Source: a virus
Lineage: Duplodnaviria; Caudoviricetes
Direction: 5' to 3' (one strand)
IMG/VR virus record: IMGVR_UViG_3300045994_000112
Location: 1-59,286 of that record
Length of the DNA stretch: 59,286 bases
This document shows positions 13,485 to 48,093 of this stretch, in pieces (position 1 is the first letter of the stretch; each line of letters begins with the position of its first letter). A program made the position numbers and the translations under genes. The notes below the pieces were generated by a model. That model searched no databases, was not told the origin of the DNA, and saw nothing but the letters and a program-made list of their open reading frames with translations.

Positions 13485-13559
13485 TGGTCCCGCTAGGCCG
13501 AATCGAACGACCATCTAAGGTTTAGGAAACCCCTGCATTATCCATTATACGATAGCGAG
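13485..13559 (-). tRNA. tRNA-Arg(CCT)
   Basis: Cloverleaf, TTCGA T-loop, CCA. Confidence 0.9.
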
Positions 13560-29747: not shown

Positions 29748-29820
29748 TGGTTGCGAACCACAGAATCGAACTGTCCCTACGGGTTATGAGCCCGTTGTGC
29801 TACCATCACACTCGGCCGCG
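29748..29820 (-). tRNA. tRNA-fMet(CAT)
   Basis: C1:A72 mismatch; GGG/CCC anticodon stem. Confidence 0.85.
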
Positions 29821-34678: not shown

Positions 34679-34856
34679 TTGTTTTAAGGCTGACGTTTGT
34701 GCTTGCGTACAGGATTCGAACCTGCCCATCCGGGTTTAAAGCCCAGTATGCTATCCACTACATCAACGTAATCTCCTTACCAACCATACTGCAATACTTA
34801 TGGACAGGAGTCAAACTTCAGACTGCTTCAAATTGCAGTTATCAGCCTTAAAACAA
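34679..34856 (-). ncRNA. long-stem CTGCAA RNA enclosing tRNA-like domain (TTA anticodon)
   Basis: Same terminal stem as 29824-30000; GGCTGAT-AA-CTGCAA; CTGGG-CT-TTA-AA-CCCGG. Confidence 0.7.
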
Positions 34857-36721: not shown

Positions 36722-36931
36722 ATTGTACATTAAAGTTAATTTAGTGTCAAACACTTTGTTTCTATCCCTTAGCAAGCTTAGGATTTCTTCACTTAGTGCT
36801 TTATCTAACTTAAGTCTTATTGTACATTAAAACCTATTAAGCGTCAACTTAGTTTGGCAATCTTTTTACTTACCGCCAACCACCTCATCAACTTAAGTAC
36901 CTATTGTACATTAAAACGTTTATTACGTCAA
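36722..36931 (-). promoter_or_regulatory. three tandem sigma70 promoters
   Basis: TTGAC(A/G)-17-TACAAT at 36722-50, 36819-47 and 36903-31. Confidence 0.8.
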
Positions 36932-39063: not shown

Positions 39064-39150
39064 TGGCGGATCATAATAGAATCGAACTATCACCGCTTTC
39101 GCAGTGGGTCGGTATTCGAAGCCGATTAACGCCCAGCGTACCTATGATCC
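39064..39150 (-). tRNA. tRNA-Ser(CGA)
   Basis: Long variable arm; atypical D arm. Confidence 0.8.
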
Positions 39151-40346
39151 ATAATCTTTATCTTTTTAAATCCTGCATTAGTTGGATTCCCTGCTGGCTT
39201 TGCATTTTCTGGACATAAGCTGCAAGCAGGAATTTCATATAGCAAGTCATCAATAAACTTTTTAATTTTGGCAATCTCCCAATTTGGATTGCCGGGCTCG
39301 TAGCTACTAGCTACCGCCATTTGTTCTTTTGTTGCATCAACTGCAAACTGTGCACTAAATTCGCCAAATACTGCAACTGGGCCGCATTTCCAAAGTCTAC
39401 CTCTGGCAAATTGATATGCTTGCCACTCAACTGAAGTAAAGCAGCAATTTGAATGTGCTACTCTTCCGTTGCCAGTTTGGAATTTAACAGTTTGCCCCAC
39501 TTGCGTAAGCATAGTGTCATAAAACTTATATGAATCCATTACTAGCAATGATACGCCATTAGCATCAGTGATTTTATATCCATCCGAAATTGGTTTTGGT
39601 GGTGCAAAATTAAACAATGTAATACATTCGTCTTGAATGTATTGCGGTAAATTTTTAAACTCATCAGGTCTGTTACATGCTGGCCAATCGTTGGCTTTGA
39701 TGGAGTTGTATTTTTCAATCCATGCTGTGTTGCTAACTGCTCCCCAGTTTTCATCGAATGAGAATAACTCCTTGCATTCATCTTGAATGGCTGATGGCAA
39801 ACTCTTAAAGTCAGACCTAAAATTACATGTTGGCCAATCTGCTAGTTTAATTTGTTTGTATTTTATGTCCCACCGACTACCTATTACTTCTGGTGTCAGG
39901 GATGCATGTACATCAGCAGCAAAATTTGCGCTGCTCTTTACATACGGTGCAATTAAAAATTGATCTATTCCAGTCTGCGCATTTTGCATTACTTCATTGC
40001 TGTGTGCAGACATCCTAACTGACAATCTTGGGTTTTTAAGTCGCTCGTACAATTCTGGCCAACGCGAGAACTGTGTACCATTTGTTAATATTTCTACCTT
40101 TGATGTGGGCCATAGACCCATAACGCCGTCTACCCACAACAAAAAATCTGGATTAAGCATAGGCTCACCACCCAAAATTACTATGTGTTTAATGTCGACA
40201 ATGGCCGCCCACTTGGTATACTCGGCTGAATAATCAGCCCAGCGTTCGTGGCCCTTAAACGTAAAATTGTTAAACCTATTACAGTCAGTGCAATTCAAAT
40301 TACATACGTTTGTGATGTAAAAATCTGCAAACTCGATTTCAATCAT
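39126..40346 (-). CDS. radical SAM protein with two WP modules
   Basis: CNLNCTDC, LGGEP, TNG, C-terminal CSLC. Confidence 0.85.
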   Translation of the reverse strand: MIEIEFADFYITNVCNLNCTDCNRFNNFTFKGHERWADYSAEYTKWAAIVDIKHIVILGGEPMLNPDFLLWVDGVMGLWPTSKVEILTNGTQFSRWPELYERLKNPRLSVRMSAHSNEVMQNAQTGIDQFLIAPYVKSSANFAADVHASLTPEVIGSRWDIKYKQIKLADWPTCNFRSDFKSLPSAIQDECKELFSFDENWGAVSNTAWIEKYNSIKANDWPACNRPDEFKNLPQYIQDECITLFNFAPPKPISDGYKITDANGVSLLVMDSYKFYDTMLTQVGQTVKFQTGNGRVAHSNCCFTSVEWQAYQFARGRLWKCGPVAVFGEFSAQFAVDATKEQMAVASSYEPGNPNWEIAKIKKFIDDLLYEIPACSLCPENAKPAGNPTNAGFKKIKIMDHRYAGR

Positions 40347-40991
40347 TTATTGATGTTTATATGTTTCTATATATTTTACCACATTGGTATCAAACCATTG
40401 TGGGTTTGCATGTAAGTAATCAATTGTTTTACTTAATGTCCACGGTGTTCTATAAGGGCGATTCGACATTAGTGCTTCCGCAACGTCACATGCCGCCAAT
40501 ATACGTATATTATGCGGAATTTGTTCCGCTGTCAATTTAAGTGGATAACCCGACCCATCTAATCGCTCATGATGCATATATGCAAAATCTACTAATGGCC
40601 ACGGTGATACTAAATTAGATAAAATAATTTTACCAATCGGCACATGCGTTTCCGCAATCATCCGCTCACCAGGAGTAAGTGGTCCAGCCTTAGAAATAAC
40701 ACTGTGGTGGACACCTATTTTGCCTATATCATGTATCAACGATCCAATTGTGACACCAATCATGTCATGGTATGATAACCCCATCTTGGATGCAACATGC
40801 GTTGCAATTTCTTCTGCAGAACACAAGTGATCACCTGTATGCGAGTCGTATGCTTGCATCATTGTGACTAGAGTTTCAAAGTGAGAACATATTGTTTTCA
40901 CTGTCATCTCATCAGGAGAATTACCCATGCTAGCCATGTAGTGCTGCAAAAACTCTTTACTTGCAAACATGGCTTTAGTATTAGGGTGCAT
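40347..40991 (-). CDS. HD-GYP phosphodiesterase
   Basis: HDIGKIG, HHERLDGSGYP, CDVAEAL.SNRPYR. Confidence 0.9.
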   Translation of the reverse strand: MHPNTKAMFASKEFLQHYMASMGNSPDEMTVKTICSHFETLVTMMQAYDSHTGDHLCSAEEIATHVASKMGLSYHDMIGVTIGSLIHDIGKIGVHHSVISKAGPLTPGERMIAETHVPIGKIILSNLVSPWPLVDFAYMHHERLDGSGYPLKLTAEQIPHNIRILAACDVAEALMSNRPYRTPWTLSKTIDYLHANPQWFDTNVVKYIETYKHQ

Positions 40992-41001
40992 ACTATATTT
41001 A

Positions 41002-41075
41002 TGGTATCCCGTAGCAGAATTGAACTGCTGTTTTAACCATGTCAAAGTTACGCTCTACCATTGAGCTAACGGGAC
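41002..41075 (-). tRNA. tRNA-Val(GAC)
   Basis: Cloverleaf, CCA. Confidence 0.85.
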
Positions 41076-45802: not shown

Positions 45803-45877
45803 TGGAGTCGCGTACGGGGATCGAACCCGCCTGAACAGGTTGAAAGCCTGTGGACCTCACCAAAAGTCAAACGCGAC
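45803..45877 (-). tRNA. tRNA-Glu(TTC)
   Basis: ACAGG-CT-TTC-AA-CCTGT; CCA. Confidence 0.8.
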
Positions 45878-45884
45878 ATAAACT

Positions 45885-45958
45885 TGGTACCCTGTCCAGG
45901 TAACGATCCTGGGTCTATCGGTTATCAGCCGATTGCTCTACCTTTGAGCTAACTGGGC
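45885..45958 (-). tRNA. tRNA-Ile(GAT)
   Basis: Cloverleaf, CCA. Confidence 0.85.
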
Positions 45959-45966
45959 ACTAAACT

Positions 45967-46040
45967 TGGTACGGGATGTAGGGATCGAACCTACGCTCTC
46001 AGAGTCAAAGTCTGATATGCTACCATTACATAAATCCCGA
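45967..46040 (-). tRNA. tRNA-Gln(TTG)
   Basis: Cloverleaf, CCA. Confidence 0.85.
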
Positions 46041-46365
46041 TCAAAAAACTTACCTACTGTGGCTACTCCTTAGTAGCATATAGATTCAGAGTCTATAGGT
46101 CCTGCAAATTTACTGCTTGCCACCCATGTACGTCAGTAGGTATTCAAAATAGCAGTTAGTAACCTTTGCAATGCCATTGCTGATTCAGGCACAACTGCTA
46201 TTTTGAATACCTAGCATTGCTGCTAGATATGTTGGGGTCTCTGTGCCCCAACCAGGAGTCTTACTAATGTGTTCTCACCACACGTTCATGTTTCCTGTCC
46301 GCCCTTTTTACAGCTTAATTTATAGTGTTCTGCTAGGTCTACGTTACCTATCCACACTGCACATA

Positions 46366-46524
46366 TTAGCAGGCAATTAAACTGCCTTTATGCGACTTCT
46401 TTTTACATTGTAACTGCGCATTACGCATCAGCTTCTTCGCAATAAGCTCTTTGAACTTATCTTGTGTTAGCGTAAACGTTGCCAGCCACTCTGTTTGTTG
46501 TTTCAATTTTTTATCTGTTTCCAT
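46366..46524 (-). CDS. small basic ORF after the attenuator
   Basis: AAGGA SD; METDKKLKQQTEWLATFTLT... 52 aa. Confidence 0.45.
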   Translation of the reverse strand: METDKKLKQQTEWLATFTLTQDKFKELIAKKLMRNAQLQCKKKSHKGSLIAC

Positions 46525-46535
46525 TATTCCTTTTC

Positions 46536-46578
46536 ACAAAACAAAAAACCCTGGGGTCTTTCGACTTCCAGGGTTCTT
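46536..46578 (-). terminator. intrinsic terminator (attenuator)
   Basis: AAGAACCCTGGAAGTC-GAAA-GACCCCAGGG followed by TTTTTTGTTTT. Confidence 0.8.
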
Positions 46579-46603
46579 GAGTTTCTGTAGTTTACATGCT
46601 ACT

Positions 46604-46786
46604 TTAGCATAAACCACTTCCCTCTCGAACCCTGCCCTTAATCTCCCCGCGTGTCACAATAGTTTCTGTACTCGCATTATACGAGCCGCTTGTAAAGCTA
46701 TTGGACAATGTCGCATCATGCCACATCGGTGCCACGGGCTGTATCGCCTGGACTGATTGTTGCAATGATAAGAGACTATGTTTCAT
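46604..46786 (-). CDS. putative attenuator leader peptide
   Basis: 60 aa between promoters and terminator; contains all 20 amino acids. Confidence 0.6.
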   Translation of the reverse strand: MKHSLLSLQQSVQAIQPVAPMWHDATLSNSFTSGSYNASTETIVTRGEIKGRVREGSGLC

Positions 46787-46843
46787 TTTGTTTACCGTTT
46801 TAACTGTTTAAAGTTGCCTTGTTTAATTAACTTACTAAGCACA

Positions 46844-47086
46844 ATTGTACATTAAACTGATTAATGTGTCAACTGCTTCTGTTTATTTATCCTACCTCGT
46901 AACGCCGAATTATTTCTGCGTTACAAAGTCTTCTAACTTGTTACCAGTGTACATTAAATTAAATTTAACGTCAACTGCTTCTTCAATTTATTTATGCCAT
47001 TTCAAAAAACACTGCTTTTATGCGGGCTTTTTGAGCTTTTTGCATTTCCAAGTACGTAGTGTACATTAAAACGTTTATTGCGTCAA
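46844..47086 (-). promoter_or_regulatory. three tandem sigma70 promoters
   Basis: TTGAC(A/G)-17-TACA(A/C)T at 46844-72, 46946-74 and 47058-86. Confidence 0.8.
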
Positions 47087-48093
47087 CCCACCAATGCAGC
47101 CGAAAATTCTTTTCTTGTCCTGGCCTCGTACCACTGTGCAAGCTTGCCAGAACTTATGAACTCCCAGTTCTTCTCAAAACGTCCCTGGCATTCCTGCCAT
47201 TTCCGTTTCGCTAAGTCACCATTGTGCAATATCTCGTAATTAAAGTCAATAGCTGATACAACTCTAAGAGCCGAATCTTCAATTTTATCGTAAGAATGGT
47301 CAATAATGTCATCAAACATGTCAAAACCTATGTCACGCAAGAACTGCACAGTGCTGCAGGATGATAGGATGATTGGGAAGTTGAATGCCACAAAGCAATG
47401 CATTGTCTTCTCTGTCAGGTTGAATGCAGGTTCTTCAAACGTCGTTTCACCAACAATCTCTATTAGGCTGTTCGTGTACATTGCCCGAAGCGTGTTTTCA
47501 AAATTTGCTACATTGTTAACCGTACCTATGCCTTTATAGATGTCCGAATCAGAGGGTGTTAAACTGCAATACCCCATTTCCAATGCATCCCGGTGTTCGA
47601 CTGTTATAGCAGACAAGTCCCAAGGTACCGCGTCAAGAAATGTTTGGTGTTCCTTAATCAATGTTGTTACCACCGCAGGGCAAAGAGTGCCAGCAAGGTA
47701 ACTTGCCACTGTAGTACGATGGTGACGTGGATTGCGATTTAAGCTGATAACATGCTGTGGCGTAAAGTTCTTGTCACGAACTGGCTGCATCACTTGGTAC
47801 TGTGCAATTTGATTTAACCAATCCCCACCCATTCTTACTATACGGGCGTTTGCTAACACTAAATTTTCAACGCTCACACACACAATGAATTTATTTGGGT
47901 TTCTGGTTATCAGATGATCCAAAGAGTCATTGACTACGTCTTTCACACATAGTATGACCTGCCCTTCTGGCAAAATGCTAGGAATCAGATGCAAATGAGA
48001 TGACCATACATAATACGCAGGCCGGTCGCCAACTAATTCCAACATTAAATGAAATGTAAATTTATCAGTGGGTGGTTTTAATATCACCTGCAT
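47083..48093 (-). CDS. glycosyltransferase-like hypothetical protein
   Basis: SLNRNPRHHR, IEIVGET, LTEKT, GFDMFDDIIDHSYD. Confidence 0.65.
   Translation of the reverse strand: MQVILKPPTDKFTFHLMLELVGDRPAYYVWSSHLHLIPSILPEGQVILCVKDVVNDSLDHLITRNPNKFIVCVSVENLVLANARIVRMGGDWLNQIAQYQVMQPVRDKNFTPQHVISLNRNPRHHRTTVASYLAGTLCPAVVTTLIKEHQTFLDAVPWDLSAITVEHRDALEMGYCSLTPSDSDIYKGIGTVNNVANFENTLRAMYTNSLIEIVGETTFEEPAFNLTEKTMHCFVAFNFPIILSSCSTVQFLRDIGFDMFDDIIDHSYDKIEDSALRVVSAIDFNYEILHNGDLAKRKWQECQGRFEKNWEFISSGKLAQWYEARTRKEFSAALVG

Follow-up and report, generated by a model that had tools for sequence, protein, structure and literature searches.

The regulation of phage tRNA genes is little understood, and the role of phage tRNAs is itself debated between codon supply and escape from tRNA-targeting defences (PMC10264068, in the part available). 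The viral contig described here, 59,286 bp long and referred to as the window, carries a large tRNA array preceded by promoter-like sites, a short ORF, and a terminator, and it raises the question of whether translation of that ORF could set the transcription of the tRNA genes behind it. An initial annotation had proposed exactly this, namely an attenuator in which a leader peptide containing all 20 amino acids gates the array, by analogy with the trp and his operons.

The window, with a completeness rated at about 17%, is a piece of a giant (jumbo) freshwater phage. Its sequence occurs in DNA sequencing runs from metagenomes of rivers, ponds, and wetlands. An rIIA gene is present, and no close cultured relative was found, the best rIIA matches being less than 40% identical; a comparison of the leader module with cultured phages likewise gave no match at the DNA or peptide level and one tRNA hit only. 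The ARAGORN prediction comprised 56 tRNA genes between positions 13485 and 46040, every one of them on the minus strand, and two Rfam matches outside the ARAGORN list (45806-45877 and 29752-29819, minus strand) bring the tRNA-like genes to 58. Two protein genes are embedded in the array (39126-41045, minus strand), one for a radical-SAM protein of 406 aa and one for an HD-domain protein of 232 aa; their substrates may be tRNA or nucleotides.

Layout of the locus and its occurrence in relatives

The order claimed at the outset has promoters first, then a 60-codon ORF in which every amino acid occurs, a terminator, and the array; each element and its position on the minus strand were confirmed. 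Listed in the direction of transcription, the features are the following.

47058-47086, minus strand: promoter-like site P1, TTGACG-17-TACACT (9/12 matches)
46946-46974, minus strand: promoter-like site P2, TTGACG-17-TACACT (9/12 matches)
46844-46872, minus strand: promoter-like site P3, the nearest to the leader, TTGACA-17-TACAAT (11/12 matches)
46604-46786, minus strand: leader ORF, 60 codons plus TAA, 20 distinct amino acids (ORF list and translation)
46624-46634, minus strand: region 2, CAGGGTTCGAG, codons 51 to 55, 5' strand of the predicted antiterminator (folds)
46587-46617, minus strand: hairpin topping the antiterminator and containing the stop codon, 46606-46604 (folds)
46569-46581, minus strand: region 3, CTCAAGAACCCTG, partner of region 2 or of region 4 (folds)
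46538-46575, minus strand: intrinsic terminator, AACCCTGG, a 13-nt loop, and CCAGGGTT, followed by TTTTTTGTTTT (fold and U-tract)
46366-46524, minus strand: ORF2, 52 aa; its good Shine-Dalgarno sequence, AAAGGAA, lies directly past the U-tract (ORF list)
46041-46365, minus strand: conserved structured RNA from ORF2 to the first tRNA gene, 325 nt and ORF-free (RNAalifold)
45967-46040, minus strand: first tRNA gene of the array, Gln with anticodon UUG (ARAGORN)

The three promoter-like sites have a longer motif in common, which recurs at 36895-36931 and at three other places on the contig, and the triple promoter was also present in two relatives (L006 and L029). No promoter-like site was found in the window between the terminator and the first tRNA gene, so ORF2 should be reachable by read-through only. 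Further promoter-like sites occur within the array, including a second triple cluster at 36931-36722, which confines the leader to the head of the first transcription unit, with 31 tRNA genes between the first array tRNA and that cluster. The proposed gating of the tRNA array is thus narrowed to this unit.

Two side observations concern these promoters. The second three-promoter cluster (minus strand) is followed by about 760 nt (36720-35960) without a long ORF or an Rfam match, a stretch that is a candidate large non-coding RNA. A motif (C/G)ATAAATAAA occurs at 46996-46987 and 46891-46882 (minus strand), immediately 5' of the -35 hexamers; relatives have a motif of the (C/G)ATAAATAAA type 60 to 75 nt before the leader ATG, and other clades have TAAATAAA a few bases 5' of it. 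We take these motifs to resemble the T4 late-promoter box, and by this likeness the leader unit may be transcribed late as well.

ORF2, which had no match among Pfam or PHROGs families, was found in most relatives, was missing in L016 and L041, and was replaced by an endonuclease-like ORF in L029; the switch was retained in all three. For the structured RNA behind it, RNAalifold predicted 50 pairs from 8 relatives, and 31 of these pairs show compensatory changes; among its elements are a hairpin capped by a GCAA loop and a long hairpin whose tip varies (perfect stem of 19 bp, 46206-46134). A search for an Rfam family that would cover the leader, the switch, or the downstream structured RNA gave none. 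A further hairpin, UAUAGA / CUCUGAA / UCUAUA (46097-46079, minus strand), resembles an anticodon arm in shape, its 7-nt loop having U as the second and A as the sixth nucleotide. L006 and L029 share this hairpin, which is absent from the other clade. Two insertions in this part of the relatives look mobile, one in L006 (6745-7450), where an ORF with a zinc-finger-like start is flanked by a duplicated 5' part of tRNA-Gln on one side and by the intact gene on the other, and one in L029 (2750-3110), where the endonuclease-like ORF at the place of ORF2 is rich in Cys and His.

Relatives were collected in several ways. In viral and metagenome contigs, 14 unique DNA copies were identified by protein and pattern searches, and a word-index search added 22 small proteins. 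A set chosen independently of the attenuator was based on the structured-RNA motif ACACTATAA..GGCGGACAG, which marks about 47 viral contigs; viral contigs with this downstream motif yielded 52 stretches, and together with the earlier loci they provided 42 unique upstream regions that were 700 nt or longer. Five of them (L040, L045, L065, L070, and L043) were dropped as chance motif matches inside long ORFs. The module was present in all 37 true relatives, 35 detected by the automatic scan and two, L033 and L064, by eye. The latter, which are near-identical, have an intact stem and a degenerate U-tract (GGGGTTTCC) about 110 nt before the downstream RNA motif, and their module may be a weakened attenuator. 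A metagenome pattern match, L015, turned out to be an unrelated bacterial tRNA with a terminator and was rejected. Same-orientation tRNA genes follow the module in the window and in L006, L008, L011, L013, L016, L017, L018, L020, L024, and L029, and tRNA genes were found downstream wherever the flank of a locus was long enough to show them. Conservation ahead of other arrays, to which the initial annotation had pointed as a check, was thereby borne out among these relatives.

Two alternative helices and their conservation

In the window, the antiterminator pairing of regions 2 and 3 amounts to 8 + 3 bp, and nine nucleotides of region 3 are common to this helix and to the terminator stem, the arms of which occupy 46575-46568 (AACCCTGG) and 46554-46547 (CCAGGGTT). 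The terminator hairpin alone was calculated at -19.1 kcal/mol. The minimum-energy fold was the antiterminator both in the 3' part of the leader (126 nt; z = -3.56; 0/200 shuffles as good) and in a 304-nt transcript that begins shortly after the proximal promoter and ends with the U-tract (z = -3.70; 0/100 shuffles as good), and the U-tract in the minimum-energy fold of the window was paired with upstream loop bases. Neither the 126-nt nor the 304-nt fold offered region 2 an upstream partner, that is, a 1:2 (pause or anti-antiterminator) hairpin was absent, so untranslated RNA would by default lead to read-through. The hairpin topping the antiterminator showed compensatory changes in relatives (GCA/TGC, GCT/AGC, and TGTT/AACA).

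Taken on its own, the window is only mildly unusual in having both the complement and a peptide with all 20 amino acids. When the ORF was shuffled by dinucleotides, a perfect 8-nt complement to the terminator 5' arm arose in 72 of 5,000 versions (1.4%), and in 0.5% it fell in the last 60 nt; 9 to 11% of the 60-aa windows taken from the phage's own proteins contained all 20 amino acids, so that the completeness of this one peptide is not significant and becomes so only across relatives. These two frequencies are what an ordinary reading of the locus can draw upon, in which a small early gene is followed by a leaky terminator and both the complementarity and the amino acid variety are incidental.

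For each locus, the RNA existing before the terminator 3' arm was folded, with dinucleotide shuffles of the upstream part as controls. In all 35 unique loci the terminator 5' arm paired with upstream sequence within the last leader codons, where region 2 was located in every case. The energy gained by this pairing was -8.9 to -16.2 kcal/mol versus -2.4 to -5.4 kcal/mol for the shuffles, and the proportion of shuffles (n = 200) matching the observed gain was at most 1.5% in 33 of the 35 loci and 3% and 6% in the remaining two. The pairing was realized in 27 distinct region 2/region 3/region 4 patterns, such as GGGUUC:GAACCC, GGGUCC:GGACCC, GGGGCUUC:GAAGCCCC, GUUUCAUA:UAUGAAAC, and GGGGUUAGA:UCUAACCCC, with 6 to 13 (median, 8) nucleotides of region 3 engaged in both helices. 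The first two of these patterns show the co-variation, and in L037 a three-way change, GAG / CUC / GAG, preserved both helices. Two loci (L024 and L027) kept GGGUUC in a shifted frame, with FQE or FRE in place of VRE, which indicates that the constraint there acts on the RNA. When 32 switch regions were simply aligned with MAFFT, RNAalifold recovered 5 terminator pairs only; since such an alignment is not structure-aware across clades, per-sequence folds and shuffles were used, and the case for co-variation rests on the former.

The terminator was similarly constant. Its stem ranged from -13.6 to -20.8 kcal/mol in the 35 loci, with a U-tract present, and a canonical G+C stem plus U-tract was seen in 35 of the 37 relatives; in all 14 DNA copies the two conformers were of similar energy. 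The stop codon of the leader lay in the loop that separates region 2 from region 3 in 26 of the 35 loci and within the 3' end of region 2 in the other 9. The spacing between region 2 and the stop was -3 to 24 nt, and that between the stop and region 3 was 13 to 27 nt. For a ribosome footprint of commonly accepted size, this placement is such that a terminating ribosome would block the antiterminator.

A mutually exclusive antiterminator and terminator is thus conserved beyond chance in the relatives. What had been noticed as a complementarity between the last codons and the terminator 5' arm of one locus holds in 35 of 35, in 27 co-varying versions, and this recurrence speaks against the incidental reading.

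The leader ORF and its amino acid content

The leader ORF was found in all 35 loci, upstream of the tRNA genes, with which it is predicted to share a transcript. Its frame was free of stops in 14/14 unique copies, each of the other five frames having 1 to 8 stops, and the indels in 11 close pairs were multiples of three in 24 of 24 cases, a count that leaves out a twelfth pair, too divergent to align and of mixed lengths. The dN/dS of the 5' part was 0.34 to 0.97, and changes were spread evenly over the three codon positions, with no third-position excess. This pattern fits an ORF that would be kept for translation and not for its product, and from it we infer that the leader ORF is translated. 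The peptide had no match among Pfam or PHROGs families; parts of it (W, KH, SIRG, and EG.GYA) were conserved. The codon adaptation of the window leader was low (0.685 versus 0.779 +/- 0.052, with 4.2% of windows lower), which is suggestive only.

No Shine-Dalgarno sequence preceded the leader ORF in any clade. One clade has ten copies in which 6 to 7 nt separate the ATG from the -10 hexamer, and since an ATG so near this hexamer points to a leaderless mRNA, the spacing suggests that the leader mRNA of these copies is leaderless. Two RNA libraries contained contigs that cover the leader in relatives. A 254-nt contig of a relative in library X22 runs across the terminator (46481-46734), although contigs cannot show RNA ends, and a 328-nt contig in library X14 lies over 46612-46911, DNA being possibly present in such libraries. 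The leader contig and downstream contigs of X14 differed in depth, a difference to which no weight can be given. The leader ends in TAA in 34 of the 35 loci, and in the window a second in-frame TAA lies three codons past the stop. Beside this, an ARAGORN tRNA of the array (34699-34773, minus strand) has the anticodon UUA, which would decode the stop codon UAA.

The amino acid content of the peptide was then compared among relatives. A first set of 54 unique peptides (41 to 64 aa) contained 20 different amino acids in 30 cases, 19 in 22, and 18 in 2, whereas 2.9 complete peptides were expected from the phage's own proteins and 3.9 from the composition of the family; even with a perfectly even composition, only 4 to 29% of peptides of 41 to 64 aa would be complete. 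A second set came from an HMM/profile search against 1.84 billion cluster representatives, with thinning at 50% identity, which gave 41 matches; after two long proteins with partial matches and one peptide already counted (P0011) were left out, 38 homologues of 43 to 70 aa remained, with a median pairwise identity of 0.37. All 20 amino acids were present in 32 of them, 19 in 5, and 18 in 1, with 2.2 complete peptides expected. Within-column permutation, which preserves conservation and composition, yielded 8.5 +/- 2.3 complete peptides with a maximum of 17, so that 32 was never reached (n = 5,000), and a similar test on the first set agreed; the two sets overlap and share descent, and their counts are thus not independent, a concern that the permutation reduces and does not remove.

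Other measures pointed the same way. Rare residues were mostly single-copy, and the single-copy Met, Glu, Val, and His occupied 14, 8, 8, and 8 different alignment columns, respectively. The number of distinct codons exceeded the uniform-61 null in 31 of 35 leaders. In ORF2, a control of similar size, the mean number of distinct amino acids was 16.05, and none of the 21 unique copies had all 20. Amino acid completeness is thus strongly enriched, and maintained, in the leader family. The all-20 leader of the initial annotation thus stands for the window and for most thinned homologues and fails as a universal rule, considering the 24 incomplete peptides of the first set and one clade that is frequently without Cys. 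The incidental reading has also to account for 32 pangrams where 2.2 were expected, with none in the ORF2 control, in addition to the recurrent complementarity; it is already difficult to maintain, and we regard it as very improbable.

A second alternative accepts the switch as real and denies that the pace of the ribosome sets it: a phage or host protein, an RNA, or simple kinetic partitioning would decide, and the ORF would be kept for another reason, for example as a trans-acting peptide. The absence of a Shine-Dalgarno sequence and of a pause or 1:2 hairpin would agree with this, as would the conserved parts of the peptide listed above. It offers, however, no RNA-level or ordinary protein-level rationale for a completeness that exceeds column conservation, and dN/dS values near 0.4 to 0.9 and a stop codon always within or adjoining the antiterminator argue against it. 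So does an Rfam scan of 45900-47200 at E values up to 1, which gave tRNA and two weak unrelated matches and no T-box or other cis-regulatory family. We consider such a pace-independent decision unlikely.

Where in the ORF a stall would matter was estimated with a strict footprint rule based on commonly accepted ribosome dimensions, which requires the A site to be at least 5 codons before region 2. By this rule a mean of 18.1 amino acids are placed where a stall would free region 2, versus 16.0 expected for 37 residues, and all 20 are positioned to signal in only 2 of the 35 loci. Asp and Glu codons often occur in the tail only, and stalling there should not lead to read-through; the sole Cys codon of the window is the last codon, downstream of region 2. 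A simple sensor of any amino acid does not, therefore, explain every detail.

The acidic tail can also be turned into an argument for a third alternative, in which translation acts and either the output is another one (translation of ORF2, processing, or stability of the pre-tRNA 5' end) or the polarity is opposite, finished translation favouring read-through. The tail is where a stall would favour the terminator; the ribosome-binding site of ORF2 lies directly 3' of the U-tract, and the pairing of the U-tract with upstream loop bases in the window's fold would suit such an output as well. On the other hand, the switch was kept where ORF2 is absent or replaced, and the canonical stem and U-tract, seen in all but two of the relatives, are those of a terminator. 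We judge this alternative to be distinctly unlikely.

Three narrower candidates were considered and rejected. Gln-specific attenuation would concern one clade only, with its 2 to 4 Gln codons, and the first tRNA gene varies among relatives. Selection for Cys alone was dropped, as roughly half of the first 27 peptides contained Cys, a share that chance would also give. The sequence GVREG is similar to the SecM arrest motif, GIRAGP; a SecM-like arrest was rejected because V and R vary (FQE, FRE, and FIE) and the RNA motif stays.

Proposed mechanism and comparison with known systems

We consider it reasonably probable that the module acts as a transcription attenuator read by the ribosome, with nearly all aminoacyl-tRNAs being sampled, at the head of the first unit of the tRNA array. 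Three sigma-70-type promoters would drive the short leader ORF, whose region 2 and stop codon lie in a long predicted hairpin with region 3, the latter serving as the terminator 5' arm as well. As region 2 is made first, RNA free of ribosomes would fold into the 2:3 helix, the polymerase would read on, and ORF2, the structured RNA, and the tRNA genes would be transcribed. A ribosome keeping pace with the polymerase would cover region 2 or sit between regions 2 and 3, the 3:4 helix would form, and transcription would terminate. Because termination would need a ribosome that is on pace, any slowing earlier in the ORF would raise read-through, and a near-pangram ORF with unusually many different codons would make this a gauge of nearly every aminoacyl-tRNA. 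The outcome would be a feedback between translational capacity and the phage tRNA supply. We infer both the direction of the switch and what it senses from this arrangement, and a response to tRNA depletion or anticodon nucleases is to be understood in the same conditional sense.

A stronger form of this attenuator, which we put forward tentatively and with somewhat less than even confidence, is a universal aminoacyl-tRNA gauge, in which a leader that may be as short as 43 codons is kept by selection as a pangram, a shortage of any charged tRNA raises transcription of the near-complete tRNA set of the phage, and recovery lowers it. If true, it would answer, for example, host tRNA decay or cleavage by anticodon nucleases. 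An amino-acid-complete leader would be the first attenuator built for all charged tRNAs at once and not for one, and the virus would regulate its tRNA output through feedback from translation itself. The family supplies in any case a natural pangram ORF, a possible compact reporter of global decoding capacity. In full-text searches, the parts of the literature available to us contained no leader peptide or attenuator before phage tRNA genes and no amino-acid-complete leader.

Among phages, the T4 tRNA cluster has early promoters, small stable RNAs, and small ORFs, and the locus resembles it in having tRNA genes alongside small structured RNAs and small ORFs. We know of no leader-peptide attenuator for the T4 cluster, and unlike T4, the present phages are without a close cultured relative. 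T-box riboswitches (RF00230) bind uncharged tRNA directly and, as proposed for the phage element, couple tRNA status to the choice between terminator and antiterminator; the phage element differs in having a conserved ORF and no Stem I or specifier architecture.

The trp and his attenuators, to which the locus was originally likened, belong to the enterobacterial leader-peptide attenuators, which comprise trpL, hisL, leuL, thrL, pheL, and the multivalent ilvL. The analogy holds for the short upstream ORF, for a terminator 5' arm that has an alternative upstream partner, and for the placement of the stop codon, by which a ribosome at the end of the ORF would block a segment and a lagging one would lead to read-through. 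It does not extend to the codons, since in place of a run for a single amino acid the phage leaders have 18 to 20 different amino acids, mostly once or twice, the 2 to 4 Gln codons of one clade being the only runs, nor to the 1:2 hairpin, which the phage leader lacks and without which its untranslated RNA would read through. The phage ORF is furthermore without a Shine-Dalgarno sequence, on an mRNA that is often apparently leaderless; its 41 to 70 codons make it longer than most leaders of amino acid operons, and it would control viral tRNA genes. Leader-peptide transcription attenuation of the enterobacterial amino acid operons is described in the available parts of PMC1183508 and PMC3082878.

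The phage element is probably closest in behaviour to leader peptides that sense a general inhibition of translation. One of these, bmrB-bmrCD of Bacillus subtilis, is a leader-peptide attenuator before antibiotic resistance genes. Attenuators sensing translation inhibition are also reported for vmlR (B. subtilis) and msrD (PMC9226507 and 10.1101/2021.11.29.470318, in the parts available). The phage leader differs from bmrB, vmlR, and msrD in being carried by a phage, in having tRNA as its predicted output, and in a completeness that is apparently under selection; it shares with them the lack of a special codon run, and slowing anywhere in the ORF would shift the choice between terminator and antiterminator.
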